From Rickettsiales bacterium (GTDB lineage Bacteria > Pseudomonadota > Alphaproteobacteria > Rs-D84), in the NCBI GenBank assembly GCA_031262525.1, contig JAISHM010000007.1, positions 21,635-85,634 of the forward strand: 64,000 bases of DNA, read 5' to 3'. How positions within the stretch are numbered: the first letter of the stretch is position 1; each line of letters starts with the position of its first letter. A program made the translations under genes and the position numbers. Below, one piece after another: positions 1-61,241 of the stretch. A model generated the notes under the pieces. That model was not told the origin of the DNA. It did not search any database and saw only the letters and a list, made by a program, of their open reading frames with translations.

Positions 1-662
1 TGCCCCACCTGACACGCCAGATTATGTCGCAACTTTGGTGAAAACGCGCCCATTTTCGCCGCTGTGCTGTCTGCTGTTGATGGGTCGGCAAATGCCGTCG
101 CCACCAGACATGTTTCATACGCAAATTCATCATCCGTTCCCGCCGTGAATTTCCCGTCAATCACATGGTTAAAAGACAATCCAACATTAAACACAGGTCC
201 AATAAAAATATCAGTTATCATTCGCGGAAGCGGCATCATCAACAAAGATGTTATCAAGACCAATTTTACAATAGTTGCGCCAAACTTACCCGATAATTGC
301 CATGCGTCCGGACTGGTCGGTTTTCCGTCCATACCCAAATAAGACTTTACAATTTCCCACGCAAAATATACCGCCGTCAATGCCGCCGCAACCGGCACAC
401 ACACAACACCAATAGTATGATAAATTTTTGGTAATATATTTGATATAACCAGCATTATGTCATTAAATAAACCACAGGTCCAACAACTGGAAAAAAACGA
501 AAAAGCATCCGACATATCGACCGGCACCGCCGACCTGAAAATTGACACCCCCAAAATTATCGTTCCACCGCCCAACGCACCAATTGCCAACGGTGCAATC
601 GCGCCCGCCGTCAATGGAAAAAACGACAAAAATGTAATCAAAAATTTTTTTAACTTTGACAT
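1..662 (-). CDS. Polytopic membrane protein, putative TrbL/VirB6-like paralog 0 (N-terminal ~220 aa only; gene runs off the left edge)
   Basis: Manual minus-strand translation from the ATG at 660-662: MSKLKKFLITFLSFFPLTAGAIAPLAIGALGGG...FFSSCWTCGLFNDIMLVISNILPKIYHTIG...PLPRMITDIFIGPVFNVGLSF. It stays open to position 1. It is absent from the ORF track because no stop lies in the window. It shares CW(S/T)C-x-x-F and P-R-x-IT-x-I-x-x-x-PV motifs with ORF 2004..3221. Confidence 0.6.
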   Translation of the reverse strand, partial: MSKLKKFLITFLSFFPLTAGAIAPLAIGALGGGTIILGVSIFRSAVPVDMSDAFSFFSSCWTCGLFNDIMLVISNILPKIYHTIGVVCVPVAAALTAVYFAWEIVKSYLGMDGKPTSPDAWQLSGKFGATIVKLVLITSLLMMPLPRMITDIFIGPVFNVGLSFNHVIDGKFTAGTDDEFAYETCLVATAFADPSTADSTAAKMGAFSPKLRHNLACQVG

Positions 663-679
663 TTAATTTAAGAGTTTTT

Positions 680-709
680 TTGTGATTTTATTATACCATA
701 ATTTATAAA
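680..709 (+). promoter_or_regulatory. Candidate sigma70-type promoter of the 718..5940 operon (TTGTGA-18-TATAAA), 8 nt from the ATG
   Basis: TTGTGA at 680-685 and TATAAA at 704-709. The ATG is at 718 and there is no purine-rich SD in 710-717. The intergenic region is only 55 bp. Confidence 0.3.
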
Positions 710-717
710 ATTGTTTT

Positions 718-2004
718 ATGATATTCGCAAGAATGAGGAAGTTATTTGCTTTTTTATCAGTTTTCTGCGCATTTGCGTTTTTTCCAAACATGGGAAATGC
801 CGCATGGGGTATCGTTGACGCGCTGGACCTGTCGCCTTTTGTTCCGATTATTTTGGACGCTTTTATGTCAATCGCGATGGCGGGCTATGAATTTTTTGTT
901 GGTAATGGCGACGGAATAATTTATCTGTTTGTTTGGGGGTGGTTGGCATGGCATATCGCAACATACGCGGTAAAAATGTATATCCCAAAATCGTGGTTGG
1001 ATTTTTTTGGTATGGATGGCGGCGGAATGTGGTCTGGAACAGATGGTTGGAAAATTTCCGAAGATGTGTTAAAACCATGTATTCGTGGAATTGTTGCCGC
1101 TGCGATTTTACTACCACTAAAACCACAATACATTACAAACTTTGTCGTTGACCCGTTCTTGCAATTCGGCGGAATTTACACATCTAGTATATCAGAAATT
1201 ATAACCCAACAGAATATTTCCACGCCTGCAAAAAAAATAAAATGCCCAGATGAAATTATCCAAAAAAATTACATATCCGCCGCCAGTTGTGAATTTATGG
1301 TTCAACCCGTGGCAGATATAACCGCAGTAAATAATACTTTTATAAAACGCGGAATGGAATATATAACATCGGGATTGACCGGCCTGATGACGATTATACC
1401 GAACGGGGCAAATGGTTTTATGGATATAATAACCGGGGTTTTGTTGGTGTCTGCCTTTACCGCCAGCAACTTTTTTATGGCATTACTGATTATCCAGGGA
1501 ATTTTTAATTTTGGAATGGCATTGATTATGTATCCGTTCAAGGTTGTTGTCTTTGTGTCAAAAAAATCTGATGATTGGGTAAATCCGTGGCCTGCGTTCG
1601 ATGGAATAATAGACGCGTTAAAAAAACTGGTGATAACAATGATCGCGTGTATGTTTATATTGGCGATAAATATCGCGGCTGTGCGCGCGTTATTCAATTT
1701 TAACAAGTCTGTGTTTGTTGTTGCGGCCGGTGGCAGTGCTTCATCAAACTTACCCTCGGTGGCAACAGCCCAGATGGGATTTGGCGGACATTCTGTATTG
1801 TGGTTGTCCACGATTTTAACATTCTTTTTGATGTTCCGTATTTTTGAATTGACCAAAAAACAATTGCTGGAATACACCGGCAAAGATGCGGACGCTATGT
1901 ATAAAAAGTCAAATGAACAGGTCAAAAAAGTATGGAAAAACACAATGGATTACAAAAAAGAAACACAAAAAATTATTGGTTGGTTCAAGAAAGATAAAAA
2001 ATAA
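718..2004 (+). CDS. Polytopic membrane protein, putative TrbL/VirB6-like paralog 1 (428 aa)
   Basis: N-terminal signal/TM segment (FAFLSVFCAFAFFPNMGNA) and multiple TM segments. A central motif LIMYPFKVVVFVSKKSDDWVNPW resembles the VirB6 P-x-x-F...T/S...W region. Lys-rich C-terminus (WFKKDKK). The stop overlaps the next start (TAATG at 2002-2006). Confidence 0.6.
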   Translation: MIFARMRKLFAFLSVFCAFAFFPNMGNAAWGIVDALDLSPFVPIILDAFMSIAMAGYEFFVGNGDGIIYLFVWGWLAWHIATYAVKMYIPKSWLDFFGMDGGGMWSGTDGWKISEDVLKPCIRGIVAAAILLPLKPQYITNFVVDPFLQFGGIYTSSISEIITQQNISTPAKKIKCPDEIIQKNYISAASCEFMVQPVADITAVNNTFIKRGMEYITSGLTGLMTIIPNGANGFMDIITGVLLVSAFTASNFFMALLIIQGIFNFGMALIMYPFKVVVFVSKKSDDWVNPWPAFDGIIDALKKLVITMIACMFILAINIAAVRALFNFNKSVFVVAAGGSASSNLPSVATAQMGFGGHSVLWLSTILTFFLMFRIFELTKKQLLEYTGKDADAMYKKSNEQVKKVWKNTMDYKKETQKIIGWFKKDKK

Positions 2005-3221
2005 TGAATGGATATACGCCATTTTTTACAGATGGGATTGTGCAATGTTGGAGTTGCCCAGTATTTGATTCGCTGATTGGTATTATATCCAGTGCGGCGG
2101 CGGCTATTTACGATAAATTGGCGTTGTTGTCGGCGGTATTACTGGGGGTGTTTGTTGCGTTTTATGTTTTATATTCTGTTGTTATGAATATGAAAAACCC
2201 AGTTGATAAAATTGACCCAATGTATCAAAAATATCTGAAACCTGTGTTTATAAATTCTATGTTTGTGATTGCGATTTTGGGTATGGGGGTTATGATTCCG
2301 CGCTTTATCACACAAATTACTTTTGAACCTGTGGCCGATGCCACAATTGTATATACTGAAAATATCCTGAACGCCAGTCAGGTTGTTGTTGATGAACGCG
2401 TGCCGTATTTAGAACAAACAATGAGCGAGGATGGATTTTATCGTCCAGAATTGCGCGATAAAATTATTCGTTTAATGCGGACCAGTATCACACAATTCCA
2501 AAATATGATAAAACTGGGAATGATTGTGATTGACCGCTCCTTTTCGTGGAGTGCGGTGGCCGGCATCGGTAATCTGGTTAAACACTTTTTATTGCTGATG
2601 GTGGGATTGGCGATTGTATGGATTTTCTTTAAGTTGTTTATAAAATTCTGTTTTTATTTTGTTGATGTTGTAATTGACCTGACCTTTTTTGCATTCTTTT
2701 TCCCGTTTATGTTGGTGCTGTGGGTATTTCGGAACTCGGAAAGTGTATCCTGGGTCAAGGATATGTCCAAAAATATGACCCCGACATATTTCAAGAATGC
2801 GATAAATTCTATTGTATCGTTGGGCGTTGTTGTTATAACCTATGTCGTGATAATGGTTGTAATAATAAAATTTTTGGCATCGCCAGAGATAAATAATGCG
2901 GAACTGACGCGTCAAATTATGAATGGAACAATCTTTGATGGCAGTTTTTCGGACGACAACATCGCAATGGTTTCATTGGGCGGGGTTATTGTATTATCGT
3001 ATATAGTTATGTATATGGCGGATAATATCGGACAAGTAGCCAAGGCTATATCCGAAACTTTCGGTATAGAGGTCCGAACAAAAGAAAGCGATAAAATCGG
3101 AGAACAAGTTATCGGCGTCGGAAAATATATCAAAGACGACATAAAAAAAAGAATAGATATTCTGCGTGATAAAAAACCATCGGACGATAAAAAAGACGAC
3201 AAGAAAGAAGACAAAAAATAA
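2004..3221 (+). CDS. Polytopic membrane protein, putative TrbL/VirB6-like paralog 2 (405 aa)
   Basis: Contains the QCWSCPVFDSL motif, MIPRFITQITFEPV, and FFPFMLVLWVFRNSESVSWV. The acidic/Lys-rich tail is KKPSDDKKDDKKEDKK. TAATG overlaps on both sides. Confidence 0.6.
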   Translation: MNGYTPFFTDGIVQCWSCPVFDSLIGIISSAAAAIYDKLALLSAVLLGVFVAFYVLYSVVMNMKNPVDKIDPMYQKYLKPVFINSMFVIAILGMGVMIPRFITQITFEPVADATIVYTENILNASQVVVDERVPYLEQTMSEDGFYRPELRDKIIRLMRTSITQFQNMIKLGMIVIDRSFSWSAVAGIGNLVKHFLLLMVGLAIVWIFFKLFIKFCFYFVDVVIDLTFFAFFFPFMLVLWVFRNSESVSWVKDMSKNMTPTYFKNAINSIVSLGVVVITYVVIMVVIIKFLASPEINNAELTRQIMNGTIFDGSFSDDNIAMVSLGGVIVLSYIVMYMADNIGQVAKAISETFGIEVRTKESDKIGEQVIGVGKYIKDDIKKRIDILRDKKPSDDKKDDKKEDKK

Positions 3222-4672
3222 TGTTAAAATCAAAAATAATTTTAACAGCGGTAAAATTTTTTATGTGGATACTGGGGGTTGGTATCGGCATCTGGTATTT
3301 ATCGTCCAGTATAAACGGGGATGGTGTCCCTTATTCATCATTAAATAATTTTATGGTGGCCACGGGCGCGTGTGAAAATGGTGTGTGTGATATTTCGCAA
3401 ATGAATGGTTGTTTCTTGTGTCCTTTTGTTAAACAACTTTTTAATGTTATTGGTATGGCGACAACTGATTTTTGGAATGCGATGGTCCATAATTTATGGA
3501 TTTTAATTGCATTGGGTTTTGTAATTTTCTTGTTCGTGCATACATGGAAAACGATGCTGGATGCGAACAAAGAAAACATAAAAATGGATTCATCGGACCG
3601 AAAATTTGATTTCAAGAAATGGTTTGACGCGGTTTGGAAACAAGGGGTTCGTGTATTACTGATTGGGGCGTTATTGGGCGCGGTATCATTTGGCGGTTCA
3701 TCTGTATTGCGTGTTGTATCGGATATAACAATCCGTCCAGTTATGTATGTTGGCGCGGAAATGTCAATGCTGGCGACGGGCGCCACATCTGTGGCGTCTT
3801 GCCCTGCGATAACACCCACCCCAGATGATAATGTAATTGGCGCGGCACTGAAACCTTTTATGTGTGTTGTTGGAAATGCAAATGCGGTTATATTGGCGGG
3901 CGCATCCAGCGGATTCGCAATGATGAATTTGGCATGGATGGATATGGGGGGCGGAATCTTTACATGGGTTGGTGGTTTAATAGTTTTGATTTTATTTTTA
4001 TTCATCGGATTTAATTTATTATTTGATATATTAAACATTATATTTAGATTGGTGTTTATTATTATATTTTTACCCGTAATTGTTGCCAGTTATGCGTTTG
4101 AAAATGTATGGGGTGTGTTAAAGGGAGCAGTTGGAAAATGTATTGAAATTTTAATAAATTGCGCAGTGCGCACAATTGCTGTTACATTAAAAGTTTTGAT
4201 AATTTATACAATTATTGCGTTGGCGGCGGATACTTATTTTCCCGGGCCTGTGGATGGGTATTCGGCGATTTTACCACCTGACTTTGCTGGAATGAACGCG
4301 TCCCCTGAATCGGGCGCTGCATCCATTGCGGCTATTTTAACCAAGTGCGAGAAAATATCATTAAATTCAGATGGTGTAGCCGATAAAGATAAGTTTGCCT
4401 CTTGTTTCCAAATAGAACGCGCAAACGCCCCGTATGGAGCATTTGATTTTATGGACAACACTTGGGAATTTTTAATGATGATGATTGGACTTTATCTGAT
4501 TTATAAATTGGTAATTTCAAAAAAGATTGACCAGATTTTTGTTGGCGATAAAAACGGAACAGAACCACTGATGAACATTGGAAAACAATTCAAGAGTTTT
4601 GGAACAGCGGTATGGAATACCCCATCTGGTCTGACAAAATATCTGTTGGATGTGTTTGGTAAAAAGAAATGA
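3221..4672 (+). CDS. Polytopic membrane protein, putative TrbL/VirB6-like paralog 3 (483 aa)
   Basis: Contains GCFLCPFVKQLF, VLRVVSDITIRPVMYVG and FLPVIVASYAFENVWGV, with many TM segments. The tail is FGKKK. ATGA overlap with the next gene at 4669-4672. Confidence 0.6.
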   Translation: MLKSKIILTAVKFFMWILGVGIGIWYLSSSINGDGVPYSSLNNFMVATGACENGVCDISQMNGCFLCPFVKQLFNVIGMATTDFWNAMVHNLWILIALGFVIFLFVHTWKTMLDANKENIKMDSSDRKFDFKKWFDAVWKQGVRVLLIGALLGAVSFGGSSVLRVVSDITIRPVMYVGAEMSMLATGATSVASCPAITPTPDDNVIGAALKPFMCVVGNANAVILAGASSGFAMMNLAWMDMGGGIFTWVGGLIVLILFLFIGFNLLFDILNIIFRLVFIIIFLPVIVASYAFENVWGVLKGAVGKCIEILINCAVRTIAVTLKVLIIYTIIALAADTYFPGPVDGYSAILPPDFAGMNASPESGAASIAAILTKCEKISLNSDGVADKDKFASCFQIERANAPYGAFDFMDNTWEFLMMMIGLYLIYKLVISKKIDQIFVGDKNGTEPLMNIGKQFKSFGTAVWNTPSGLTKYLLDVFGKKK

Positions 4673-5940
4673 TAAAGAAAATAAAAATTATTTTTATCGC
4701 AATGTTTATCGCAATTATTTGTGGGGTGGCGAGTGCGCAAACGAATACCCCAAATTCTGCGGATATTGGAAACTATGGCGCGTGGACGACCGAACATAAT
4801 CTGAATGATTTAACGACCACAGCAAAAACAGATATTGAAAAATTCCAAGGCAATTTCCAAACCCAGGTCCAGATGCCAGACTATGTTCCGATAGAGGCAC
4901 GACTGGGTAATGTTTTAATTCGCGCGATGGAAAAATTGGGGGTTGCGCTGCAACGCAGTTTATTTGATTTTATCCAGATTTTCCTGTTGGTTTTATTCGC
5001 GTTTTGGGTTATTGCCGAAGCGTATAATTTAATACAATCACGTGATGGCGATGCAAAAAAACTGGCGCCCGAGGTTGCAAAAAAGTTATTACTTATATCT
5101 GCGTGGATTTGGGTTTTGGCAAATTCCCCAGGGCAAATTTTTATGACTATTTTTGGTCCGATAGTATCGGTTGCAACATACGCATCTGATATTATTCTGA
5201 ATGCAATCACAACATCGGCGGGTGCATCGTTACCGGATACTTGCGCGGCAATTAAAACAATGACTGGGGATGGGGATTTTACCGCAGATTTATTGTGTAT
5301 GCCGACGCGATTATCTGGATTTTTCTATACTTGTATTGCGGCAGGATTTCGGTGGATTTGGTATGGATTTGGGCACAGCGCACTGACCCTGGCGGCGGGG
5401 GTGGTGTTTGTAATTATGTTTTTGATAAATTTATGGAAATTTACACTATTGGCACTGGGGGTAATTGTTGATTTATTTTTATGTTTAATGTTATTACCAT
5501 TTACCGCAATCACAGAATGTTTCGGTTCTGGGACGGGGTTAAAAGGAATCGGTGGTGATTTGTTCAAGGGCTTTGCGGGTTTGTTTAATGGGACATCATT
5601 GCAAAAACAAATTATGCGATTTATCAGCGCGGCGATTTATTTTATTGTCCTGTCCGTTATTGCGGCGATTGGCGCGGGGCTGTTGGGTGGTGTTGTAAAT
5701 GCAGATATGTTAAATGTAACACCATCGGTTGAAAACGATGGATTTATGACAACACTGATTATTGGCTTTATCGTTATGTATCTGGTGAATAAAGCGACCA
5801 GTATAGCCGAGGGTTTAAGCGGAAAGATAGACGGCAGTTTCGGTGAAACAATGGGTAAATATGTGTCAAACGCGTGGAAGTCTGGGTCAAACTGGATAAC
5901 AACCACCCGTAAAATTTTTAATGAAAGAAAGAAAAAATAA
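4669..5940 (+). CDS. Polytopic membrane protein, putative TrbL/VirB6-like paralog 4 (423 aa)
   Basis: Signal peptide (IAIICGVASAQ), then IFMTIFGPIVSVATYASD and LLPFTAITECFGSG, with many TM segments. The tail is NERKKK. Confidence 0.55.
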   Translation: MIKKIKIIFIAMFIAIICGVASAQTNTPNSADIGNYGAWTTEHNLNDLTTTAKTDIEKFQGNFQTQVQMPDYVPIEARLGNVLIRAMEKLGVALQRSLFDFIQIFLLVLFAFWVIAEAYNLIQSRDGDAKKLAPEVAKKLLLISAWIWVLANSPGQIFMTIFGPIVSVATYASDIILNAITTSAGASLPDTCAAIKTMTGDGDFTADLLCMPTRLSGFFYTCIAAGFRWIWYGFGHSALTLAAGVVFVIMFLINLWKFTLLALGVIVDLFLCLMLLPFTAITECFGSGTGLKGIGGDLFKGFAGLFNGTSLQKQIMRFISAAIYFIVLSVIAAIGAGLLGGVVNADMLNVTPSVENDGFMTTLIIGFIVMYLVNKATSIAEGLSGKIDGSFGETMGKYVSNAWKSGSNWITTTRKIFNERKKK

Positions 5941-9264: not shown

Positions 9265-9284
9265 TATTTTTGTCCTATAATTCA

Positions 9285-9316
9285 CCCCTGGCAAATAATA
9301 AAAGCCAGGGGTTTTT
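9285..9316 (+). terminator. Rho-independent terminator after murG
   Basis: CCCCTGGC (9285-9292) pairs with GCCAGGGG (9304-9311), followed by TTTTT (9312-9316). It ends 1 nt before the next ATG. Confidence 0.55.
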
Positions 9317-9317
9317 A

Positions 9318-10631
9318 ATGCAAAAGTTTGTTGTTTTGTTTTTTTGTTTATTTTTATCATTACCGGTCGCAGCGCGCGACCTGTCATTGAATGATGCGTC
9401 CAATATGATAATCGCTGCATCAAACGACATAAAAAAAGCCGATGCAAATATACAGCGTGCAAATGCCGGAATTAGTGCTGCAAACGCAAACCGATGGGCA
9501 AAAATTGACGGCAACGCCAGTTATATGAACCTGATAAATGTCAAAAATCCGTTTTCATCCGACGGGATTGAATTACCACCTGAATTTGGTGGTTTGATTG
9601 CGCAAATAACCGGCACAAATCCGAATATTGTAATCCCAGACAATTTAATGATGGCGGGGGTCAACATTACTCAACCAATTTATACATTTGGCAAAATCGG
9701 TAATGCGGTTGATGCATTGCACAGCGCATTAGAAATGTCCAAAAGCGGGCGCGAACTGATAGAACGCGAAGTGCGCAGCGCGGCCGAAAATTTATACTGG
9801 ACCGCAAAATTTGCAGACGGCGCGATTGGTATTGCGCAAAAATCATTGAATGATGCGATATCGGCACGCGCAAAATTGACAACGGCTGGTCGCGCACCAC
9901 GCGCCAATCTGGTCCAGACAGAGGCGGACATTGCGCAAAAAGAAATTGCACTGGCGGACGCAAAATTTAATTATAAAACAGCAATGGATACATTAAAAAT
10001 TATGGCGGATATCCCGCTGAATGAAAAATTGGTTTTAACCGACAATTTTCCAAAAACATTTGCAAAAACAAAATCAGGCGAAATAATTACAAATCCAGAA
10101 TGGGATATTTTATCCGCCCAGGCAAAGATGTATGAACAAAACGCGGCGACGGCGCGTGCGGGTCGCTATCCCACCTTGGCGGCAACGGGGTCTTATAACT
10201 ATATTTTAACAAATGATGACTGGCAGATGTGGAATGGAAAAAATGTGCAAAGCGCAGTGGTTGGTGTGGCGTTATCTGTCCCAATTTTTGACGGAGGGTT
10301 GGCATCGGCGAATGCGACTATGGCGGCCGCGAACGCGAACGCGGCACGCGAAGATTTGGCTAAATCCAAAAAGATAAAATCACTGGAATATAAAAATGCG
10401 ACTGAAAAATATAATCATCTGATGGAAAATTTATCTCGGCTGGGTGCGGCGCGCGACCTGGCGGCGCGGGCATACGGATATTCGCGCGATAGATTTGCAG
10501 CGGGTCAGACCAGCGCGGTTGAACTGGCGCAAACATCTGCCGCTTTATATCAAATGGATATGGCGGTTCTGAACGCAAAATACAATCTGATGCAAACTAT
10601 GTCAGAAATAAAAAAGTTAGGTGGGATATGA
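9318..10631 (+). CDS. TolC-family outer membrane efflux protein
   Basis: Signal peptide MQKFVVLFFCLFLSLPVAARD and two-repeat TolC-like helical content. It precedes the adaptor and RND genes, with an ATGA overlap at 10628-10631. The start was trimmed from the ORF-track 9270. Confidence 0.8.
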   Translation: MQKFVVLFFCLFLSLPVAARDLSLNDASNMIIAASNDIKKADANIQRANAGISAANANRWAKIDGNASYMNLINVKNPFSSDGIELPPEFGGLIAQITGTNPNIVIPDNLMMAGVNITQPIYTFGKIGNAVDALHSALEMSKSGRELIEREVRSAAENLYWTAKFADGAIGIAQKSLNDAISARAKLTTAGRAPRANLVQTEADIAQKEIALADAKFNYKTAMDTLKIMADIPLNEKLVLTDNFPKTFAKTKSGEIITNPEWDILSAQAKMYEQNAATARAGRYPTLAATGSYNYILTNDDWQMWNGKNVQSAVVGVALSVPIFDGGLASANATMAAANANAAREDLAKSKKIKSLEYKNATEKYNHLMENLSRLGAARDLAARAYGYSRDRFAAGQTSAVELAQTSAALYQMDMAVLNAKYNLMQTMSEIKKLGGI

Positions 10632-11176
10632 AAAAAATTATTTGGATTTTAATTGCCTGTATAATTATCGGATTGTCTGCTGCGCGAATTATAAAATTAA
10701 ATGATGAATCATCGCGCGTTGTTTTTAACCCGAATCGCGTGGAAACAACGCCCGTCCATACAATTGTCGCAAATGAAAAAATGGACGCATTGCATGAACC
10801 TTTGTTCGTAAAAAATAATCGCGCGTTTGTGTCGGGCGCGCGGCGCGCAAAATTCGGCGTGGGACAACGTATTGGTGATGGACATATAATTTCAATATCA
10901 AACCAATTGGACCTGGATACAGGAATGTATAAAATTATCACCAAAAATGTCGCCGATGGTGAAAATTTTGCGCTGCAAAAATATACAGGATTTTTTATCC
11001 CATTGGGTGCAATAAAAAATAATCGCGTTATGGTTATGGAAAACGGGATTGCCACATCGCGCGATGTAAAAATTATGGGACGCGATGCGACGAACGCGTT
11101 GATAACAAATGGATTAAATGATGGCGATATTGTGATTTTATCCGATGTGGCTGAAAACACACGGGTGGAAAAATAA
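10628..11176 (+). CDS. Unusually short (182 aa) RND periplasmic adaptor-like protein
   Basis: N-terminal anchor KKIIWILIACIIIGLSAA. The remainder resembles only the beta-barrel/membrane-proximal part of HlyD/AcrA-family adaptors (GMYKIITKNVADGENF..., VMVMENGIATSRDVKI, LNDGDIVILS). It sits between the tolC-like and RND genes. Confidence 0.6.
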   Translation: MKKIIWILIACIIIGLSAARIIKLNDESSRVVFNPNRVETTPVHTIVANEKMDALHEPLFVKNNRAFVSGARRAKFGVGQRIGDGHIISISNQLDLDTGMYKIITKNVADGENFALQKYTGFFIPLGAIKNNRVMVMENGIATSRDVKIMGRDATNALITNGLNDGDIVILSDVAENTRVEK

Positions 11177-11177
11177 A

Positions 11178-14100
11178 ATGTTGAAGTTCTTTATAAAGCG
11201 TCCTATTACTACGATTATGTTTGTATTGTTTTGGGTTGTGCTGGGGATTTCCAGTTATCCAAAAATGAATACTGAACGTATTCCTCCAATCGACCTGCCC
11301 CTGGTAACGGCGACCTTTGTTTATCCAGGCGCATCCCCAATTGAAATTGAAACAAGCGTCGTGCAAATCGCCGAAGACAAAATATCCGAAGTGTCAGGTC
11401 TGAAAAAAATTACATCACAAATTTTTGAAAATGGCGCATTTGTCATGGCGGAATTTAACCTGGGGGTAAATGTCAATGACAAAGCGGCCGAGGTTAAAAC
11501 AAAAATAGACTCTTTGGGTAGCGATTTCCCAGATGAATTAAAGCAACCAGTAATTGAAAAATTTAACCCATTGCAACAATCGGTGGTTGATATTGTTTTA
11601 ACTGGTGAAAATATGCGCGATTTGCATGAGTATGCTGACGATATTTTGGCCAAAGAAATAACCGCAATTCGCGGCGTTGCAGGGCTGAATATCTTTGGCG
11701 GAGACAGGCGCGCGGTACGAATTGAAATTGACCCAGAAAGATTGACCGCGCGTGGTTTATCCACACCTGAAATAGTGGCGGCCATCGGACGGCAAAATAT
11801 AAATGTTCCCAGTGGAAAACTTGAAAATCAGACCAGTGGCAATGTTGTGCGTATGGTCGGCGAATTTTCCAACATAGGCGATATTAAAAATATGCAAATC
11901 ACCAATGCCGAGGGTCAAATAATAAAACTGATAGATGTCGCACGCATTACGGACGGCGCAATGGACATACAAAACGCGGCGCGCTTTAACGGCAAAAATG
12001 TTGTTATCGCATCCGTGGTAAAGGCGAACGATGGTAACGCAATAAAAATATCAAGTCAACTGCAAAAAAATATGCCAGAAATGCAAAAAAATATGAGCGC
12101 GTATTTTGCAAATAAAAATGTTGGCGATGTTTCTATGGAGATAATTTCTGATTCATCGGTTGCGATAAAGAATACTACGAACAATACAATTTTCAGTGTG
12201 TTGATTGGGATTATTTTAACGATTGTTGTTTTATTGGTATTTACGCGCAATTGGCGCAGCACGATTATTTCCGCGGTGGTTATACCAACTTCTATTTTGG
12301 CGGGATTTTTCTTTATGCAGATGTCGGGATTTTCTATAAACACCCTGACCCTACTGGCGATTGCAACAGCACTTGGCACATTGGTTGCGAATGCAATAGT
12401 GTTGATAGAGGCCGCATTGCAACGCCTGGACAAAGGTATGTCCCCCGAAGACGCCGCATTGGACGGCACAAAATCTGTGGCGACTGCCGTGCTGGCCGGC
12501 ACAGGAACCAATGTCGTCGTGTTTTTACCACTGGCGTTTATGGGCGGGATTGCGGGTCAATTTATGGCTCAATTTGGAATGACTGTTGTTTATTTAACGC
12601 TGATTTCATTGTTGATTTCATTTACGCTGACACCGATGCTGATTGCGAAATTTTTAAAACGAACGATTGCTGGAACAAAACTGCGAACACAAAAAAATCA
12701 GTTGGGTTGGTATCGGAAAATCTTTGATTCGCAAGTTGCGCGTCCCTGGCGCTGGATTACCCTCGCGGTTATCGTTTTTATTTTATCAGCAATGCTGATG
12801 CGTTTTGTCGGAAATGAATTCGCAGCGTCAAGCGATACATCAGAAATAAATATAACCGCGCGCGCACCCGTTGGCGCGACATACGAAAAATCCGCGCAAA
12901 TCGCCGAACAGATTGAACAAAAATTAAAAACTTTTTCATCCATACAAAAAGTATCGTCAAAAATCGGCGAGAATGGTATGGAAAATATAAATGTAAAGGT
13001 TGGTTTAATTCCCCGCGGAATGCGCGAATCAGACAAAGCCATTGCCCAAACATTGCTGGAATCACTATCGGGTATCCCCGACGCACAAATACAGATAAAG
13101 GCGGGTGAGTCTGTGTCGGGGGCGGCTATGTCGGCAGACCTGGTATTAAACATTGGTGGCGCGGATGATAATAAAAGAAACGCGTATGCGGACGCGTTGA
13201 TACAAGAAATAAACCAGTTGCCAGAGGTTGCAACCGCAACAAACGCCGACCAAAAGCCAGGGCTTGAAATCGCATTTATCCCAGATGAAAATAAAATGAA
13301 ATTTTGGGGTATCAGCAATGCGGCCGCGGGGGGCGCTTTACGAACTGCATTGTATGGGAATGACACTTATAAATACAAAGAAAATGGAAACGAATATCCA
13401 ATTATTATTGAATATATGGATGAATACAAAACACCCGATATGTTTAACAGCGTCTATGTCAATTCACCAAAGGGTTTAATCGGATTAAATCAGTTGGGCA
13501 GTGTGGCAGAGCGCACTGCTTCGCCAAACATTCGTCGCCTGGAAAAACAGCGCATAACACAAATAGATATAAACATTGGTAAATCAACAATTGGACCCGT
13601 CCAAAATAAAATTCAGAAAATCATAGACAATATGAATATGGACACAGGATATACAGCAACCTTTGGTGGTTTAAGCGAGACGCAGGCGGAGACCACAGGC
13701 GAAATTTCGCACGCGTTTTTACTGGCGGTTGTTTTAACATTTATGTTGCTGGCGGCGATATTAAATTCGTGGGTACATCCATTTACAATCGCAACATCTA
13801 TATTGACATCGTTCAGTGGAGTATTCATATTTATGTTTTTATTTGGTGCGACAATAAATATCGCAGCAATGTTATCCTTTGTTATGTTGGTTGGATTGGT
13901 TGTGAATAATAATATCTTACTTTTAGAGCCAACAATTGTCGCGGTAAATAACGGCAAAAAAATCCATGACGCTTTGTGGGAAAATTTCGGGGATAAAACC
14001 AGAATGCTGCTGATGACAACGATTACGATTGCGGCTAGCTCACTTCCACAACTATTTTCAGCCGAAGGTATGCAGGTTTCCATGGGCGCGGTAATTATTG

Positions 14101-14192
14101 GTGGCGTCCTGGCATCATTATTCTGGACATACTTTTTAACCCCTGTGTTATTTGTGGTTATGGAAAAATTACGAACAAGATATAAAAAATAA
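11178..14192 (+). CDS. RND (AcrB/HAE1-like) inner membrane efflux pump
   Basis: 1004 aa. Begins MLKFFIKRPITTIMFVLFWVVLGISSY, with 12-TM architecture and two large periplasmic loops. The start was trimmed to the ATG at 11178, just after the adaptor stop at 11174-11176. Confidence 0.9.
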   Translation: MLKFFIKRPITTIMFVLFWVVLGISSYPKMNTERIPPIDLPLVTATFVYPGASPIEIETSVVQIAEDKISEVSGLKKITSQIFENGAFVMAEFNLGVNVNDKAAEVKTKIDSLGSDFPDELKQPVIEKFNPLQQSVVDIVLTGENMRDLHEYADDILAKEITAIRGVAGLNIFGGDRRAVRIEIDPERLTARGLSTPEIVAAIGRQNINVPSGKLENQTSGNVVRMVGEFSNIGDIKNMQITNAEGQIIKLIDVARITDGAMDIQNAARFNGKNVVIASVVKANDGNAIKISSQLQKNMPEMQKNMSAYFANKNVGDVSMEIISDSSVAIKNTTNNTIFSVLIGIILTIVVLLVFTRNWRSTIISAVVIPTSILAGFFFMQMSGFSINTLTLLAIATALGTLVANAIVLIEAALQRLDKGMSPEDAALDGTKSVATAVLAGTGTNVVVFLPLAFMGGIAGQFMAQFGMTVVYLTLISLLISFTLTPMLIAKFLKRTIAGTKLRTQKNQLGWYRKIFDSQVARPWRWITLAVIVFILSAMLMRFVGNEFAASSDTSEINITARAPVGATYEKSAQIAEQIEQKLKTFSSIQKVSSKIGENGMENINVKVGLIPRGMRESDKAIAQTLLESLSGIPDAQIQIKAGESVSGAAMSADLVLNIGGADDNKRNAYADALIQEINQLPEVATATNADQKPGLEIAFIPDENKMKFWGISNAAAGGALRTALYGNDTYKYKENGNEYPIIIEYMDEYKTPDMFNSVYVNSPKGLIGLNQLGSVAERTASPNIRRLEKQRITQIDINIGKSTIGPVQNKIQKIIDNMNMDTGYTATFGGLSETQAETTGEISHAFLLAVVLTFMLLAAILNSWVHPFTIATSILTSFSGVFIFMFLFGATINIAAMLSFVMLVGLVVNNNILLLEPTIVAVNNGKKIHDALWENFGDKTRMLLMTTITIAASSLPQLFSAEGMQVSMGAVIIGGVLASLFWTYFLTPVLFVVMEKLRTRYKK

Positions 14193-14220
14193 AATCGCGG
14201 CAAATGCCGCGATTTTTATT
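14193..14220. terminator. Bidirectional hairpin terminator between convergent genes
   Basis: AATCGCGGC-aaat-GCCGCGATT, flanked by an A-run upstream and a T-run downstream. Confidence 0.6.
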
Positions 14221-14244
14221 TTTCTTTTCAGTTTTTTATTTTCG

Positions 14245-14496
14245 TTATCTTGTTTTTTCGTTTGACGATTGTTTTACCGAACCAACCAAAACAAATGCCG
14301 ATGCCAGCGCTGTCAGAAATGCCGCGCCCACGCCATAACCAACATAATCCGTAACCTGTTCAAATGTTTGATTGGATATATTAAACACACAATTGGTAAG
14401 TTTCATTACGCCATACGCAACGCCACCAATACCCGCGATTCCCGCCAGTCCAACCGGCCAACAGCCATATACTTTGTCTTTTTTAATCTTGGTCAT
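14245..14496 (-). CDS. Small (83 aa) two-TM glycine-zipper membrane protein, function unknown
   Basis: Two hydrophobic Gly/Ala-rich segments: PVGLAGIAGIGGVAYGV and GYGVGAAFLTALASAFVLVG. ATGA overlap with the upstream gene at 14493-14496. Confidence 0.6.
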   Translation of the reverse strand: MTKIKKDKVYGCWPVGLAGIAGIGGVAYGVMKLTNCVFNISNQTFEQVTDYVGYGVGAAFLTALASAFVLVGSVKQSSNEKTR

Positions 14497-15047
14497 TTGA
14501 TACCCCTTTGGTTCTCATTGTTATTTTTTTGCGCGACCTCTATCCCAAGTTTGCGTCTTTTTTGATAATCTTTAAGCAAAAATTTGTTAAATTTTATCTG
14601 TTCCCGTTTTAATGGGTTAAATGTATGATTTTTTATTTTAACATTATTTGTTTTTACATTTCTGATATTTATCATGCTATCATTTTTATGCAATTCTTCT
14701 AACTGCGACGGAATAGAATATACACATCCATTATATGGGTTTGTATTTTTCTTTTTTAATTCGTTTGGGGCAAAATTCATAATATCCGATATTTTACGCA
14801 AAAATTCCGCACTGCTGACCCCATGATAATAAATAATACAATTATCATAAATCCCAGAGCGCGTTGAACTGATAGAATAAAAATCATCATTTCCATTTTG
14901 TAATAAACACTCGTAATTTTTATCTTTATATTTTTTTACAAAAACCTCTATCTCTCGGCTTTCATTTTTTGTATCAATCAGTGACGCCAATAAATTTAAA
15001 ACAACATCCGCCGGGATTGGTAAATTGGCCGAAAATATCTTTTTCAT
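14493..15047 (-). CDS. Hypothetical protein (184 aa), orphan, very AT-rich
   Basis: Long ORF with SD-like AAAGAG and its own promoter. I recognised no motif. It is Lys/Asn-rich. Confidence 0.6.
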   Translation of the reverse strand: MKKIFSANLPIPADVVLNLLASLIDTKNESREIEVFVKKYKDKNYECLLQNGNDDFYSISSTRSGIYDNCIIYYHGVSSAEFLRKISDIMNFAPNELKKKNTNPYNGCVYSIPSQLEELHKNDSMINIRNVKTNNVKIKNHTFNPLKREQIKFNKFLLKDYQKRRKLGIEVAQKNNNENQRGIK

Positions 15048-15074
15048 CGCAAAACTCTTTTATGTTTTACAAAA

Positions 15075-15102
15075 ATAATACTATATCAGATGTGTTTGTC
15101 AA
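15075..15102 (-). promoter_or_regulatory. Sigma70-type promoter (TTGACA-16-TATTAT) for the 15047..14245 two-gene module
   Basis: On the minus strand, TTGACA is at 15102-15097 and TATTAT at 15080-15075. It lies immediately after the merR-like stop at 15108. Confidence 0.45.
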
Positions 15103-15107
15103 GGAAT

Positions 15108-15629
15108 TTATTCAGAAAGCAATTCGGCGCGCGCACGGCGCAACATTTCAATTATTTCATTCTGTTTTTGCAACGAATCATCTGTCCCGCATACCGATTC
15201 TATTTTATTTTCGGGTTGCGACGCGTCCATTACATCCGCCATATCATCGGCGCGCATTTGCGTCGCCGCAGAGAACAAATCGCTGGTATTCAGCACACCA
15301 TTTTCATCGGTCATTTTTTCGTATTGTTCGCCACCGCTGACCATATTATTTTTTTGTGGGCCGGGCTGCGCAACCGGCGCTTTATCAACAACAATCTGCA
15401 TTTTCCCCAGCGCGGCGCGCGCACCCGCGATTGTCATACCATCATTATATAACAAATCACGAATTTTCTTGATTATCGCCGCAGTGTCATCGCCGTAATA
15501 GCGTCGCCCGCCTGCCCCAGTCATAGGTTTAATAAAGCGTGGGAATTGCTTTTCCCAATAACGCAGTGTATGCGCCGGAATTCCCAACTCTTTGGATATA
15601 TTTGAAATAAAATGATACGCCTTTACCAT
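15108..15629 (-). CDS. MerR-family transcriptional regulator
   Basis: N-terminal wHTH: YHFISNISKELGIPAHTLRYWEKQFPRFIKPMTGAGGRRYY. Confidence 0.85.
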   Translation of the reverse strand: MVKAYHFISNISKELGIPAHTLRYWEKQFPRFIKPMTGAGGRRYYGDDTAAIIKKIRDLLYNDGMTIAGARAALGKMQIVVDKAPVAQPGPQKNNMVSGGEQYEKMTDENGVLNTSDLFSAATQMRADDMADVMDASQPENKIESVCGTDDSLQKQNEIIEMLRRARAELLSE

Positions 15630-15678
15630 AGTTTTTTATTATACCACAAAAAACCCAAAACACGAAATTATAAATACA

Positions 15679-15707
15679 TTGACAAAGAGAGAGAGAGAGA
15701 GTAAAAT
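15679..15707 (+). promoter_or_regulatory. Sigma70-type promoter TTGACA-17-TAAAAT whose spacer is an (AG)8 dinucleotide repeat
   Basis: TTGACA at 15679-15684, spacer A(AG)8 at 15685-15701 (17 nt), TAAAAT at 15702-15707. Downstream are SD AAGGAG at 15724-15729 and the ATG at 15736. Confidence 0.55.
15686..15701. repeat. (AG)8 simple sequence repeat
   Basis: Eight perfect AG units, read directly from the sequence. Confidence 0.95.
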
Positions 15708-15735
15708 ACAGCTTATAAAAAACAAGGAGTATAAA

Positions 15736-16488
15736 ATGCTAAACAACCTACCAAAAACAAATCCAAGATTAAAAAAATTTATAACAGCCGTCACAAAAAG
15801 AATAAAAAGTCCGCGTGGGCTGGTACTGGCTTTGATTACAACTTATTTAATGGGTATGGGTAATCAAAAAATAATAACAGAACTATCCAATAATAAAAAA
15901 CAGGAAAAAGCAAAAGCAGAAATTGAAAAATTCCTGGACAGCCAACCAAATTACGAAGAAATAATGATTGCAACAGAACAGGCATACGATAAAGAAATAA
16001 AAGATTTAACTGATATATTAGAGGATGACAAATTTTACGAAAACCACCTATTTGAAGTAGCCGAATACGAAGCACTTAAAACAATATGGGACAAATTATC
16101 AGACTCACAAAAACAGAATATATACACAACCATAAAAGATATGAAGCCAGAAATTGACAGGTCTAAAGAACCATTTCGTATGATACAAGATTATTATTAT
16201 TTGTATTATAATAGACAAATAAAGCGAGATAAAATTATCGATATATACGAAAAAACTCCCCCGGTAATATTTAACCAATTCGAATTAGAAACAATTTTTG
16301 GACAAATTGACACCGCGACAAATAGATACAACAACCAGGGTTTATCCAACAAAATCCAAACCAACAAAGCCAAACTGGACTCTTTGCAAACGGCAAAAAC
16401 AGAAGTTTTGAGAAAACTAAAAAAAGAGAACGAGAAACAGAAAAGATTTGCTGATTCTGCTTATGCCGCGAACAAAATAAAGCGATAA
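15736..16488 (+). CDS. Hypothetical Lys/Glu-rich coiled-coil-like protein with one N-terminal TM segment (250 aa)
   Basis: The start was moved from the TTG at 15679 (which is the -35 box) to the ATG at 15736 behind SD AAGGAG. TM segment: GLVLALITTYLMGMG. No motif recognised. Confidence 0.6.
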   Translation: MLNNLPKTNPRLKKFITAVTKRIKSPRGLVLALITTYLMGMGNQKIITELSNNKKQEKAKAEIEKFLDSQPNYEEIMIATEQAYDKEIKDLTDILEDDKFYENHLFEVAEYEALKTIWDKLSDSQKQNIYTTIKDMKPEIDRSKEPFRMIQDYYYLYYNRQIKRDKIIDIYEKTPPVIFNQFELETIFGQIDTATNRYNNQGLSNKIQTNKAKLDSLQTAKTEVLRKLKKENEKQKRFADSAYAANKIKR

Positions 16489-16521
16489 GAATAATAAAAT
16501 ATATCTGCACCAGAAAACAAA

Positions 16522-16553
16522 ACCCGCAGGGTTTAAACCTTGCGGGTGATTTT
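16522..16553. terminator. Hairpin terminator between convergent genes
   Basis: ACCCGCAGGGTTT/AAACCTTGCGGGT imperfect long stem, followed by a weak T-run (GATTTTA). Confidence 0.45.
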
Positions 16554-16607
16554 ATCTTTAACCAAACATTTTATGTCTGGCATATGTCTTTTTTTGTGAG
16601 TTTTGGG

Positions 16608-17069
16608 TTAAATTTGTAAAATCTCTCGACCAATGTGTTCTAATTTTTCTTTTGCTTCATGTAATACATCCGACCATTGTTTATCTGTGGTGTCGCCATT
16701 TTTGCCATCGCTAACAAACTTATAAACACTCAGTGGAATTTTATTTTCACGTGCCACCCATGCAATTGCAAAATCCTCCATTCCAACACAATCCCAAATA
16801 TCACACGCAATATTCCGAACAAAAGTATCACCAGTTCCAGAAATTCCGCGTAGATACCTATTATCAATTTCACCGTATTCAAGAATTGGGTTATCCGATG
16901 TTTGCGGACAAACAAATTTTGGTGCCATAAATTCAGTTGTATTCATATCCCGTTGCACAAACTGATTGATTGATAAAATTGTTCCATAATCATAAACACT
17001 GCTGCCTGCTGTTCCCATATTTACAATTAAATCTGGTTGAAACTTATCAATAACATATTGGGTTGTCAT
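16608..17069 (-). CDS. Nucleoside phosphorylase/nucleosidase (PNP_UDP_1, MtnN-like) superfamily protein; annotated ORF lacks its conserved N-terminus
   Basis: Contains DLIVNMGTAGS, GISGTGDTFV and VGMEDFAIAWVAREN motifs. The same frame stays open upstream to the fic stop (17160) and encodes YVWFIVAVEGEFALESANIAYCGIGKINAA, the expected N-terminal strand plus acidic motif, but with no in-frame canonical start codon. Confidence 0.65.
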   Translation of the reverse strand: MTTQYVIDKFQPDLIVNMGTAGSSVYDYGTILSINQFVQRDMNTTEFMAPKFVCPQTSDNPILEYGEIDNRYLRGISGTGDTFVRNIACDIWDCVGMEDFAIAWVARENKIPLSVYKFVSDGKNGDTTDKQWSDVLHEAKEKLEHIGREILQI

Positions 17070-17159
17070 AGCGGCATTGATTTTTCCAATTCCACAATAT
17101 GCTATATTTGCAGACTCAAGAGCAAATTCACCTTCTACTGCAACAATAAACCAAACATA

Positions 17160-17771: not shown

Positions 17772-17853
17772 ACTTAAAACCTCTTGATTTTATTATAGTA
17801 TAATTTGTTAAAAATACCAGTATTTTTATTATTTCTTGACAAAACATATAAAC

Positions 17854-17889
<36 letters not shown>

Positions 17890-17898
17890 GAGGTTAAA

Positions 17899-18009
17899 AT
17901 GTTTAATTTGTTGATAAATCCGATTCTTTCGTTATTTGCGGCGATATTCGCATACGCTGTATTCACAGAATTTTTGGCGTCTATTGGTGTAATCAAACGC
18001 GGAAAATAA
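17899..18009 (+). CDS. Small hydrophobic peptide (36 aa), function unknown
   Basis: MFNLLINPILSLFAAIFAYAVFTEFLASIGVIKRGK: a single TM segment with a basic C-terminus. A good SD (AAGAGG) lies 6 nt upstream. It is below the ORF-track size cutoff. Confidence 0.45.
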   Translation: MFNLLINPILSLFAAIFAYAVFTEFLASIGVIKRGK

Positions 18010-18028
18010 AAAATAATAATAAAAAAAC

Positions 18029-18057
18029 TTGATTTTTATAAATTCTTGTGGTTAAAT
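18029..18057 (+). promoter_or_regulatory. Promoter of rpmH (TTGATT-17-TTAAAT with TGn extended -10)
   Basis: TTGATT at 18029-18034, TG at 18049-18050, TTAAAT at 18052-18057. Confidence 0.45.
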
Positions 18058-59024: not shown

Positions 59025-61241
59025 ATGGCGGAGAAATTCAGTATTTTATCTTTTTCGGGCAAGGGCAAAGGCCTTAAAATTTTTGATTCGTCCGTCTATA
59101 AAGACCACGAAAAGGCACCGATTGCGCGCTATTTTTGGAATATGCGCTATAAAATTTATGTATGGATTGGGTGCGCATTGGCGTTTGCCGCGGCGTTTCC
59201 GCTGGAACATTTATGGCGCTATGGCGGGACGCCTGCGACATGGAAATGGATGGGTGTATATTTTACAAATGCTTTTTCCAGTTTTGGTTTGTCGGTAATC
59301 GCGGAAATCCCGGCATGGATTTATCGGACTATTTTTTATACGGATATTATGACAATTACCCCGTTGATACCAGTTGCTGTATTTTTCATTTTAACTAATT
59401 CTATTTTGTTAGAGGAATTTAACCCCGCTGGTAAGGATACATTAAAAGAAGAATCATCGCGCAAGGCCAATGACGAAGATATAAAAAAGATGGGGCTTTT
59501 GTCTGGGTTTATGATGGTGCTGGGCTATTGGAAGAAAAAGCCGCTGATGATGTCCGAAACATTATCTGCATTGTGTTTGGCCCCCCCCGGAACTGGTAAA
59601 ACCCAAGGGGTTGTGTTACCAACAATTTTTGATAGCACGTCTGTTTCAATGATTATCAACGACCCAAAGCCAGAATTAAAACAAAAATCATCGGCGTATC
59701 GTTCAAAAAATGTTGGACCGGTATTTATTATGAATTGGGCGGGTCAGGACGACCCAGCGAATGGAATTTACTATCCATCATGGAACCCATTGTCGCCATC
59801 ACATGTGCCATTTAATTCCGAAGAGCGGGATTTGTATATTGACTCTATCTGTGCGACACTGATTGCAGAAAAAGCATCATCATCGGCAGACCCTCACTGG
59901 ACGATTGCTGGTCGTGCTGCGCTGTCGGGATTGGTAAATTTTATGGTGTCCAAGATTGATAAGGCCAAGGCCGATGATTATTTTTATGCACGCTTAAATT
60001 CTAATGAATTTGATGGCGAAGATGCGGCATTACTGGGCGAATACTATACAATGATGAATGACCCGAATGCTGATGCTGCGCGCTATGCCTTGGCGAATGG
60101 GCAATTGACGGCAATGAACTATGTTCATATTGGAACATGGGCAAAGATTCCGGATAATTGGCTGGGGCGCGAGGCTTCATTCTCTATGATTATGGACTGG
60201 TTAAATAAAAGTCAGGTTGCAATTGCCGAAGAATTAGAAAATCGTAAAAAACAAGGCGACCAAATGTTGATGATGGCGGACCCGATGAAGGATGTCTTTC
60301 AGGACGCCACGAATGAGGCGATTCAATACGGATATGCGCACCGCGCGGTTTTGGAATTGACACAACTGGCGAATACCCCGGACAAAGAACGCGGCTCTAT
60401 TATTTCAACGGTATTGTCGGGCTTATCCATATTCCGAAATGCGGCGGTAAAAAATCGCACCAGCCACAGCGATTTTCATTTCAGCGATTTACGCGGAATG
60501 ATTGACCCAAATGACGGAAAAATGAAACCGGTTACCGTATATCTATCTATAAACCAGGTTGATGCCGATGCGTTAAATCCTATTACGGCTATTTTTGTTG
60601 AACTGATGTCGCGCTTTTTAATCGCAAATCCACCAAACGGGGAACACGCGGGTCAGGCATTGGGACCGACACCTGTTTTATTCTTGCTGGACGAAATGCC
60701 AAAGATGCAAAAAATGCAGGCAATTATCCAGGGACCCGATATTGGTCGCGGGCAAAAAGTTTCGTATTTAATTATCGGCCAGGATATCCACCAGATTCAA
60801 GAAAAATACGGCGCGGACGCGGCGGCAACCATTATTTCAACGACGGCGGCAAAAATTGTATTCCGTCAGAATGACCCAGATACAGCAAAACGATTCAGCG
60901 ATATGATGGGCGAAAAAGTCAAGGAAGAAACAAAAAAAGACAAAGATGGCAAGGAAACAAAGAATGTGGATAGAAAGCCACTATACAGCCCAATGGATAT
61001 TATGAAACTGGATGCAAAAAAACAACTGGTTATATTCCAGGGATTTTATAATCGACCGATAGAGGCCGACTATACCCCTGCATACAGCGACCCGCGCCTA
61101 TCCGCGTTTATGGCGATGGGGGAATGCCCACCGCTGCCGGAATTTTTAATTCCATCACATCACGCGATTATGCGGTACTCGGGTAATCCACGAGTCTATG
61201 ACACACAAACAAAAACAATCAAAGAATTGTCAGCGCAATGA
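59025..61241 (+). CDS. virD4: Type IV secretion coupling protein VirD4/TraG
   Basis: N-terminal TM segments, Walker A LAPPGTGKTQGVVLPT, Walker B PVLFLLDEMPKM, and IIGQDIHQIQEKYG. Confidence 0.9.
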   Translation: MAEKFSILSFSGKGKGLKIFDSSVYKDHEKAPIARYFWNMRYKIYVWIGCALAFAAAFPLEHLWRYGGTPATWKWMGVYFTNAFSSFGLSVIAEIPAWIYRTIFYTDIMTITPLIPVAVFFILTNSILLEEFNPAGKDTLKEESSRKANDEDIKKMGLLSGFMMVLGYWKKKPLMMSETLSALCLAPPGTGKTQGVVLPTIFDSTSVSMIINDPKPELKQKSSAYRSKNVGPVFIMNWAGQDDPANGIYYPSWNPLSPSHVPFNSEERDLYIDSICATLIAEKASSSADPHWTIAGRAALSGLVNFMVSKIDKAKADDYFYARLNSNEFDGEDAALLGEYYTMMNDPNADAARYALANGQLTAMNYVHIGTWAKIPDNWLGREASFSMIMDWLNKSQVAIAEELENRKKQGDQMLMMADPMKDVFQDATNEAIQYGYAHRAVLELTQLANTPDKERGSIISTVLSGLSIFRNAAVKNRTSHSDFHFSDLRGMIDPNDGKMKPVTVYLSINQVDADALNPITAIFVELMSRFLIANPPNGEHAGQALGPTPVLFLLDEMPKMQKMQAIIQGPDIGRGQKVSYLIIGQDIHQIQEKYGADAAATIISTTAAKIVFRQNDPDTAKRFSDMMGEKVKEETKKDKDGKETKNVDRKPLYSPMDIMKLDAKKQLVIFQGFYNRPIEADYTPAYSDPRLSAFMAMGECPPLPEFLIPSHHAIMRYSGNPRVYDTQTKTIKELSAQ

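Follow-up and report, generated by a model that had tools for sequence, protein, structure and literature searches.

Introduction

In the R388 type IV secretion system (T4SS), long-helix VirB6 subunits make up a pentamer that forms the membrane-embedded base of the stalk and is the proposed assembly site of a five-start pilus (PMC9259494). Rickettsiaceae carry five VirB6 paralogs, the use of which has been posed as an open question (PMC8035066), and Anaplasmataceae carry four; the paralogs of Rickettsiales always follow virB3-virB4 in an operon (PMC7648143). Here we describe an array of five short, strongly diverged membrane protein genes, very probably distant relatives of virB6, which lies outside any virB operon. 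It was found in a 64,000-nucleotide stretch of DNA (the window; contig JAISHM010000007.1 of assembly GCA_031262525.1, forward-strand positions 21,635 to 85,634) from an uncultured alphaproteobacterium, and had been proposed as a candidate expanded TrbL/VirB6 family in a sequence-only reading made without database searches.

The host carries the NCBI label ‘Rickettsiales bacterium’, and its relatives, some of them named Candidatus Enterousia, belong to the GTDB order Rs-D84. Candidatus Enterousia is placed in this order by GTDB, and all members of the order have reduced genomes (PMC12306168). They lack the tricarboxylic acid cycle, respiration and the standard transporters for sugars, amino acids and peptides, and encode many unexplained membrane proteins (PMC12306168). 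Two closed relative genomes are 716 kb and 959 kb long, and genomes of the lineage span 0.7-1 Mb.

Results

The array lies at the left edge of the window and comprises the following features (window coordinates):

1..662, minus strand: A0, VirB6-like paralog in divergent orientation, open translation of its first 220 codons, the remainder lying left of the edge
663..717, no strand: divergent intergenic region between A0 and A1, 55 bp, AT-rich, presumed to hold both promoters
718..2004, plus strand: A1, VirB6-like paralog, open reading frame (ORF) of 428 amino acids (aa)
2004..3221, plus strand: A2, VirB6-like paralog, ORF of 405 aa
3221..4672, plus strand: A3, VirB6-like paralog, ORF of 483 aa
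4669..5940, plus strand: A4, VirB6-like paralog, ORF of 423 aa

A1 to A4 are joined by stop/start overlaps (TAATG at A1/A2 and A2/A3, ATGA at A3/A4). The divergent A0 stays open to the left edge and is complete at 447 aa in a Logan contig from the same organism (L001:2286-3629, minus strand). The promoter role of the 55-bp gap is presumed from the gene arrangement; a consensus scan found no sigma-70-like site in it, with the total of scan matches at chance level. Downstream of the array in the window lie mraY, ftsW and murG.

A hydropathy scan gives each paralog 4-6 strongly hydrophobic segments. CxxC motifs occur in A0 (CWTC, residues 60-63), A2 (C15 and C18, both invariant among A2 orthologs) and A3 (CFLC), the last of which also has an enlarged, Cys-rich region predicted to be periplasmic. 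A1 and A4 have no CxxC and start with signal peptides, that of A1 being cleavable-looking (…GNA/AW), and the central loop of A4 holds an invariant Cys pair, C192/C210. The C-terminal tails of A1-A4 and of full-length A0 are rich in Lys, that of A2 in Lys/Asp. A2 is identical to the NCBI hypothetical protein LBL75_01090, from a metagenome-assembled genome labelled ‘Rickettsiales bacterium’. The description of this array in the sequence-only reading, namely five polytopic paralogs of which four are tandem and overlapping and the fifth is divergent on the minus strand from 662, CxxC in three copies and Lys-rich tails in the four copies then complete, is borne out at each point by the ORFs, the junctions and the comparisons below.

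By sequence comparison, the five genes are remote but real paralogs. Their alignment, which the earlier reading had proposed as a check, gives a mutual identity of ~20%, and pairwise BLASTP links A2-A4 (6.9e-7), A0-A2 (1.4e-6), A3-A4 (0.008) and A2-A3 (0.01), with no significant match of A1, the most divergent of the five, to any other copy. A genome scan matched 235 stretches with an A2 relative, and 84 loci were retrieved and analysed. Ortholog alignments built for each paralog from these loci were compared by hhalign, which gave probabilities of 83-98% in seven of the ten family pairs: 98.4% for A0-A2 (343 columns, E 7.5e-15), 95% for A0-A3 and for A1-A4, 94.6% for A0-A4, 93.8% for A2-A4, 92.2% for A3-A4 and 82.9% for A0-A1. 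One iteration of a hidden Markov model (HMM) seeded with A2 collected all five families at E<1e-3 (77-84 members each across the 84 loci, E-values scaled to 1.8e9 sequences), A1 being recruited at this threshold in iteration 2. The shared motifs that had been read from the five copies by eye correspond to true conserved columns, at least 80% conserved over ~700 sequences: the Pro of ‘...P-V’ in ‘P-R-x-I-T...P-V’, two Gly residues, one Phe, and the Pro within ‘(F/L)(F/L)P(F/L/V)’.

The link to VirB6 comes from predicted structure, from intermediate sequences and from a local profile match. AlphaFold2 models were made for A2 (30-sequence alignment; predicted local distance difference test, pLDDT, 67.9) and A4 (52-sequence alignment; pLDDT 78.6), and both models, which contain long helices, were searched with Foldseek against 350,542 PDB chains. 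For A2, chains of TrwI/VirB6 from the R388 T4SS stalk take the first four ranks (E 0.02-0.18, probability 0.97-1.0, target-normalised template modelling score (TM-score) 0.44-0.53), three more TrwI chains appear further down, and every non-TrwI match has a probability <0.2. For A4, ranks 1-5 are TrwI/VirB6 (E 3.4e-3 to 0.1, target TM-score up to 0.54), and seven of the nine top matches are TrwI. The two models are independent and come from proteins that are ~20% identical, and the identity of the TrwI chains was confirmed against the R388 gene (for example chain 7o3v_F; TrwI is present in all four R388 entries). These matches, of moderate strength, point to a VirB6-like fold in the predicted structures.

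At the sequence level, a profile of the A2 family found only 147 matches among 1.84e9 representative proteins. Among 70 full-length distant relatives, the Pfam family TrbL/VirB6 (PF04610) is matched by 24 at E<=0.01 (best 2.9e-8) and is the only Pfam family to recur. About 14 of them are A0 orthologs; the others are proteins of 400-1500 aa from other uncultured Alphaproteobacteria, all unannotated. In the three cases checked (P0318, P0340 and P0364) the TrbL-matching segment falls within the family-profile segment, and P0364 scores 26.3 bits against PF04610 (cutoff 25.9). Through such intermediates, homology to PF04610 is traceable by sequence. In addition, the helix with the invariant Pro in a pooled superfamily profile aligns to TrwI residues 171-193, ‘LAGLGPLFILALIWQPT’, over 23 columns with a probability of 50% and an E-value of 1.6e-4. 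Because the fold, the transitive PF04610 link and the local profile match agree, we consider the five proteins very probably to be highly divergent members of the TrbL/VirB6 superfamily that current family models miss. The resemblance to VirB6/TrbL noted from the letters alone thus gains independent support, from TrwI as top PDB match of two paralog models and from the PF04610 matches of the distant relatives.

The array is part of a larger conserved unit. Across the retrieved loci the order is S170 (minus), A0 (minus), then A1, A2, A3 and A4 (all plus), with the sixth gene lying left of the window:

L001:1674-2195, minus strand: S170, conserved gene of the module, soluble protein of ~170 aa

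The five paralogs have one-to-one orthologs of ~35-67% identity in the 84 loci (A1 and A3 in 84 of 84, A0 in 82 of 84), and S170 adjoins A0 in 74 of 84, being missing from the others, several of which end at contig ends. The five-copy array of the sequence-only reading therefore stands as far as the paralogs go and is corrected by the addition of S170. This protein has the invariant motifs GWWGELLGG and DMLATD, is unrelated to the five paralogs and has no match in Pfam, NCBIfam or PDB; a role as VirB5-like partner was considered and rejected, because it lacks a signal peptide and resembles neither the paralogs nor TrwJ. Beyond S170 the outer flank varies (rpmE in L002 and L004, nusA in L003), and the far flank is mraY-ftsW-murG or, in L004, has uvrD in place of mraY. 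Since S170 stays beside A0 while the outer flanks change, the module is a conserved core unit and not a mobile element. Homologs were seen only in uncultured Alphaproteobacteria of gut, rumen and termite, where they are annotated just as ‘hypothetical protein’.

More distant arrays of the same superfamily (HMM E-values of 1e-10 to 1e-61) occur at three loci of other uncultured Alphaproteobacteria:

L086, 6655-17362, plus strand: array of five genes (770, 781, 857, 474 and 650 aa)
L087, 7728-15207, plus strand: array of four genes
L088, 1916-11879, plus strand: array of five genes (459, 442, 283, 646 and 1497 aa)

These proteins share the CxxC motif, range from 283 to 1497 aa, are all encoded on one strand within each array, and in some cases match PF04610 weakly. 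In the last gene of L088, at 1497 aa, the VirB6-like part is fused to a Peptidase_M23 domain. The flanks of the three arrays showed no recognisable vir genes.

One further T4SS gene is recognisable in the window, 53 kb from the array:

59025..61241, plus strand: VirD4-type coupling protein (type IV coupling protein, T4CP), 738 aa; PF02534 at 3.1e-54, with PF12696 and PF10412

This protein has N-terminal transmembrane segments and the Walker A motif APPGTGKT, and it is conserved in 93 metagenome loci at 49-82% identity. It matches the VirD4/TraG models of NCBIfam, in every case below the cutoff. The gene stands alone, with sspB (58470-58943, minus strand) on one side and an RluC-like pseudouridine synthase gene (61238-61981) on the other. 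We regard VirD4 as a candidate ATPase partner of the array.

A block of genes upstream of virD4 encodes exported proteins:

51823-56719, plus strand: three secreted/outer-membrane proteins with no Pfam match (porin-like, 336 aa; 317 aa; Cys-/Pro-rich, 971 aa)

The 336-aa porin-like gene recurs in ~30 VirD4 loci, and the block is for this reason taken as syntenic with VirD4.

We favour, with some reservation, a reading in which the five proteins form a hetero-oligomeric, VirB6-like inner-membrane platform that acts together with VirD4 as part of a T4SS both scattered and highly diverged. An ancestral VirB6-like gene would have been multiplied to five in Rs-D84, and the copies would have been kept since as one-to-one orthologs. 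The five products would co-assemble into one hetero-oligomeric platform, in the simplest case a five-membered ring with one of each. Platform and VirD4 coupling ATPase would then be parts of a chromosomal, scattered, Rickettsiales-style T4SS that moves macromolecules across the envelope. The positive-inside rule predicts that the Lys-rich tails lie in the cytoplasm; the N-terminal CxxC motifs and the Cys pairs of the central loops would then be periplasmic, where they would probably form disulfides. The idea of a hetero-oligomer arises because five genes have been kept without gain or loss under strong genome reduction, four of them translationally coupled, and because VirB6 of R388 is pentameric, Rickettsiaceae have five paralogs and separate five-gene arrays exist in L086 and L088. 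Gene number and translational coupling are no more than suggestive of a pentameric assembly.

Several results weigh against this reading. The first group concerns membership in the superfamily. Scanned directly against Pfam and NCBIfam, the five proteins gave no match, and the scan against PF04610 that the sequence-only reading had proposed came back empty (A1-A4, none at E<=1); neither the paralogs nor their orthologs reach the PF04610 gathering score of 25.9 bits. Three of 104 paralog orthologs touch PF04610, the best at E 0.0015, which is noise level because EI24 scores 7e-7 in the same scan. In hhalign, each single family gives a probability of at most 2.3% against a TrwI-family profile, the alignment behind which is narrow (>=51% identity), too narrow to be a fair surrogate for PF04610. 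Foldseek gives only modest E-values, from 3e-3 to 0.2, with TM-scores of ~0.4-0.5. The A2 sequence has no match among PDB sequences, and the A2-family profile finds there only chance matches of its Lys-rich tail to calreticulin. Such results would be expected of a new, unrelated family of helical membrane proteins, with the likeness to VirB6 convergent or an artefact of long hydrophobic helices. This explanation could further draw on the comparison of single families with the TrwI family, significant neither by HMM nor by hhalign, on best Foldseek E-values of only 1e-2 to 1e-3 and on the outcome of tblastn against 72,556 plasmids, where A4 found no match. It has to account, however, for two models from paralogs of ~20% identity that both pick TrwI from the full set of PDB chains with a probability of 1.0, for PF04610 as the sole recurrent family (24 of 70), on the same segment as the family profile, and for a local profile match that coincides with the invariant Pro helix of the family. 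The sequence-only reading had itself named an unclassified family as the outcome if profile and structural likeness were absent and the genome held no other vir gene; found were a TrwI-like fold, PF04610-matching intermediates and, in the window, VirD4. We consider an unrelated family very improbable.

The second group concerns the rest of the secretion system. No virB3, virB4 or virB8-11 was found beside the array in the 84 loci, in the neighbourhood of VirD4 at 80 loci or in the rest of the 64-kb window, with probes that are weak. Likewise, phmmer searches with R388 VirB2-VirB11 and TrwB against the ORFs of the array loci, the window and the VirD4 loci yielded no credible match, the probes being insensitive here, since they barely detect the lineage's own VirD4 (E ~1e-3 against TrwB). 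To the left of the array, where the sequence-only reading had suggested looking for virB3, virB4 and virB8-11, none of these genes was found, the flank being S170 followed by rpmE or nusA. Among ORFs examined as possible T4SS parts, the conserved neighbours of unknown function (clustered ORFs >=250 aa, scanned with Pfam) were rejected as TPR, DnaX, NusA and PBP1, and the other large or unknown ORFs of the window were rejected as VirB proteins, being PNPase, MutS, LptD, GyrA, the autotransporter-like and porin-like proteins described elsewhere in this text, and similar. The published metabolic survey of Rs-D84 makes no mention of a T4SS (PMC12306168).

A gap of this kind leaves room for a protein with a VirB6-like fold and no classical T4SS around it, that is, a stand-alone inner-membrane translocon, possibly powered by VirD4, that imports or exports DNA or other macromolecules. 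An analogy would be the archaeal Ced system (PMC11868833), in which a single ATPase acts alongside a membrane protein that resembles VirB6. In contrast to Rickettsiales (PMC7648143), the array lies next to virB3/virB4 in none of the loci, and it is a strictly conserved core module in genomes of 0.7-1 Mb reported to lack standard transporters (PMC12306168). R388 probes and limited Pfam scans, both weak for a diverged lineage, detected no other T4SS gene in ~2.7 Mb of lineage fragments, and VirD4 itself is atypical, falling below every NCBIfam cutoff. Against this stands the fact that, to our knowledge, every T4CP studied works with a VirB4-containing apparatus. Moreover, the missing vir genes are judged from genome fragments. 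We hold a stand-alone translocon to be unlikely, and continue to lean towards the platform acting with VirD4 in a diverged T4SS.

The third group concerns the number five. L087 shows four genes and Anaplasmataceae manage with four paralogs, so that ‘five means pentamer’ is no rule. A bolder version of the favoured reading is possible at best and is put forward tentatively: the five paralogs could be the five distinct subunits of an obligate hetero-pentameric VirB6 ring, which together with the divergent VirD4 might be a stripped-down translocon replacing the missing transporters. If so, this would be the first C5 base of a T4SS stalk made of five distinct gene products, and a hetero-pentamer would explain why arrays of five genes have separate origins in Rs-D84, among other uncultured alphaproteobacteria and in the Rickettsiaceae. 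Conversely, the paralogs could be alternative subunits, each forming its own homo-pentamer, which would give versions of the apparatus that differ in substrate or in the conditions of use. This option has been raised explicitly for the RvhB6 paralogs of Rickettsia (PMC8035066), and it fits the great divergence of the paralogs at their N-termini (CxxC in A0, A2 and A3, signal peptides in A1 and A4) and in their periplasmic loops. It fits poorly with the translational coupling of four genes, which speaks for equimolar co-synthesis, and with 84 loci that show neither loss nor duplication of a paralog despite strong genome reduction, where one would expect the number of alternative subunits to differ from genome to genome. 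We judge separate homo-pentamers to be improbable, and prefer co-assembly of the five proteins into one platform.

Other features of the window

Directly after murG lies a group of genes in an unusual place for what looks like a resistance-nodulation-division (RND) efflux system, behind a cell-wall gene cluster:

9270-14192, plus strand: TolC-like (OEP) gene, gene for a 182-aa protein and gene for a 1015-aa protein

The RND reading is based on synteny with L002, where the corresponding genes are PF02321 (OEP), a 187-aa gene with no Pfam match and PF00873 (ACR_tran).

Next to it, the stretch from ~14000 to 19000 has a GC fraction of 0.33-0.37, against ~0.41 elsewhere, and is possibly an acquired island. 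It contains:

15108-15629, minus strand: MerR regulator
16608-17069, minus strand: truncated PNP_UDP phosphorylase
17160-17771, minus strand: Fic-domain protein
18242-18997, plus strand: DUF1796 papain-like peptidase

Fic proteins are known as effector or toxin modules of T4SSs.

Further along is another large gene:

34566-37427, minus strand: autotransporter-like protein (953 aa) that carries a signal peptide, repeats rich in Gly and, at the C-terminus, a beta-barrel whose last residue is Phe

Its Gly-rich repeats weakly match the Chlamydia PMP repeat.

Discussion

How VirB6 paralogs are used in the T4SS of Rickettsiales is explicitly an open question (PMC8035066), and a compact set of five short paralogs offers a tractable test of whether one ring is built from five subunits. 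With proteins of ~400-480 aa, the array sidesteps two obstacles to work on Rickettsia, namely giant extensions and obligate intracellular hosts. It also offers a first clue to the function of ‘hypothetical proteins’ in the core gene set of Rs-D84 (to which Candidatus Enterousia belongs), a gut lineage that is widespread and has tiny genomes, and it hints at a secretion or translocation machine by which these bacteria would interact with partner cells. For the TrbL/VirB6 superfamily as a whole, the array implies an extent well past what PF04610 currently detects.

Compared with TrwI/VirB6 of R388 (PDB 7O3V, 8RT9, 8RTD), which is the best and essentially the sole PDB structural match for A2 and A4, the paralogs are alike in being all-helical, polytopic inner-membrane proteins, by prediction, with several very long helices. 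Their conserved Pro-containing hydrophobic helix aligns with the GPLF region of TrwI (‘IALALLAGLGPLFILALIWQPTH’, residues 171-193), and a basic C-terminal tail is common to both. The differences lie in size, TrwI having 342 aa and the paralogs 60-140 residues more, and in cysteines, since TrwI has no CxxC whereas three paralogs have one at the N-terminus and the central loops of the paralogs carry Cys pairs. R388 has one VirB6 gene, whereas here there are five different ones, on the chromosome and outside any virB operon.

The rvh system of Rickettsiales (RvhB6a-e; VirB6-1 to -4) is similar in its 4-5 strongly diverged tandem VirB6 paralogs in reduced alphaproteobacterial genomes. There, T4SS genes are scattered over the chromosome with VirD4 retained (PMC8035066, PMC7648143), to which the VirD4 found here may be likened. 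The virB3-virB4-virB6(n) synteny of Rickettsiales, in contrast, was seen here in none of the loci. At 405-483 aa the paralogs are smaller than rickettsial RvhB6, and extensions (650-857 aa) are restricted to two of the more distant arrays, L086 and L087. One copy is inverted, a gene for a soluble partner of ~170 aa accompanies the array, and the host lineage is placed in Rs-D84 rather than in Rickettsiales proper. The sequence-only reading had anticipated a distinct variant, and the absence of direct Pfam and NCBIfam matches, the smaller size, the N-terminal CxxC and a position never beside virB3/virB4 all agree with this. What is already known, then, is the VirB6 kind of protein and its paralog expansion in reduced alphaproteobacteria. 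What is new is a previously unrecognised part of the superfamily, unannotated and CxxC-bearing, which PF04610 fails to detect, and a compact five-gene module with one gene inverted and a sixth, soluble partner, detached from virB3/virB4 and core to a widespread gut lineage.

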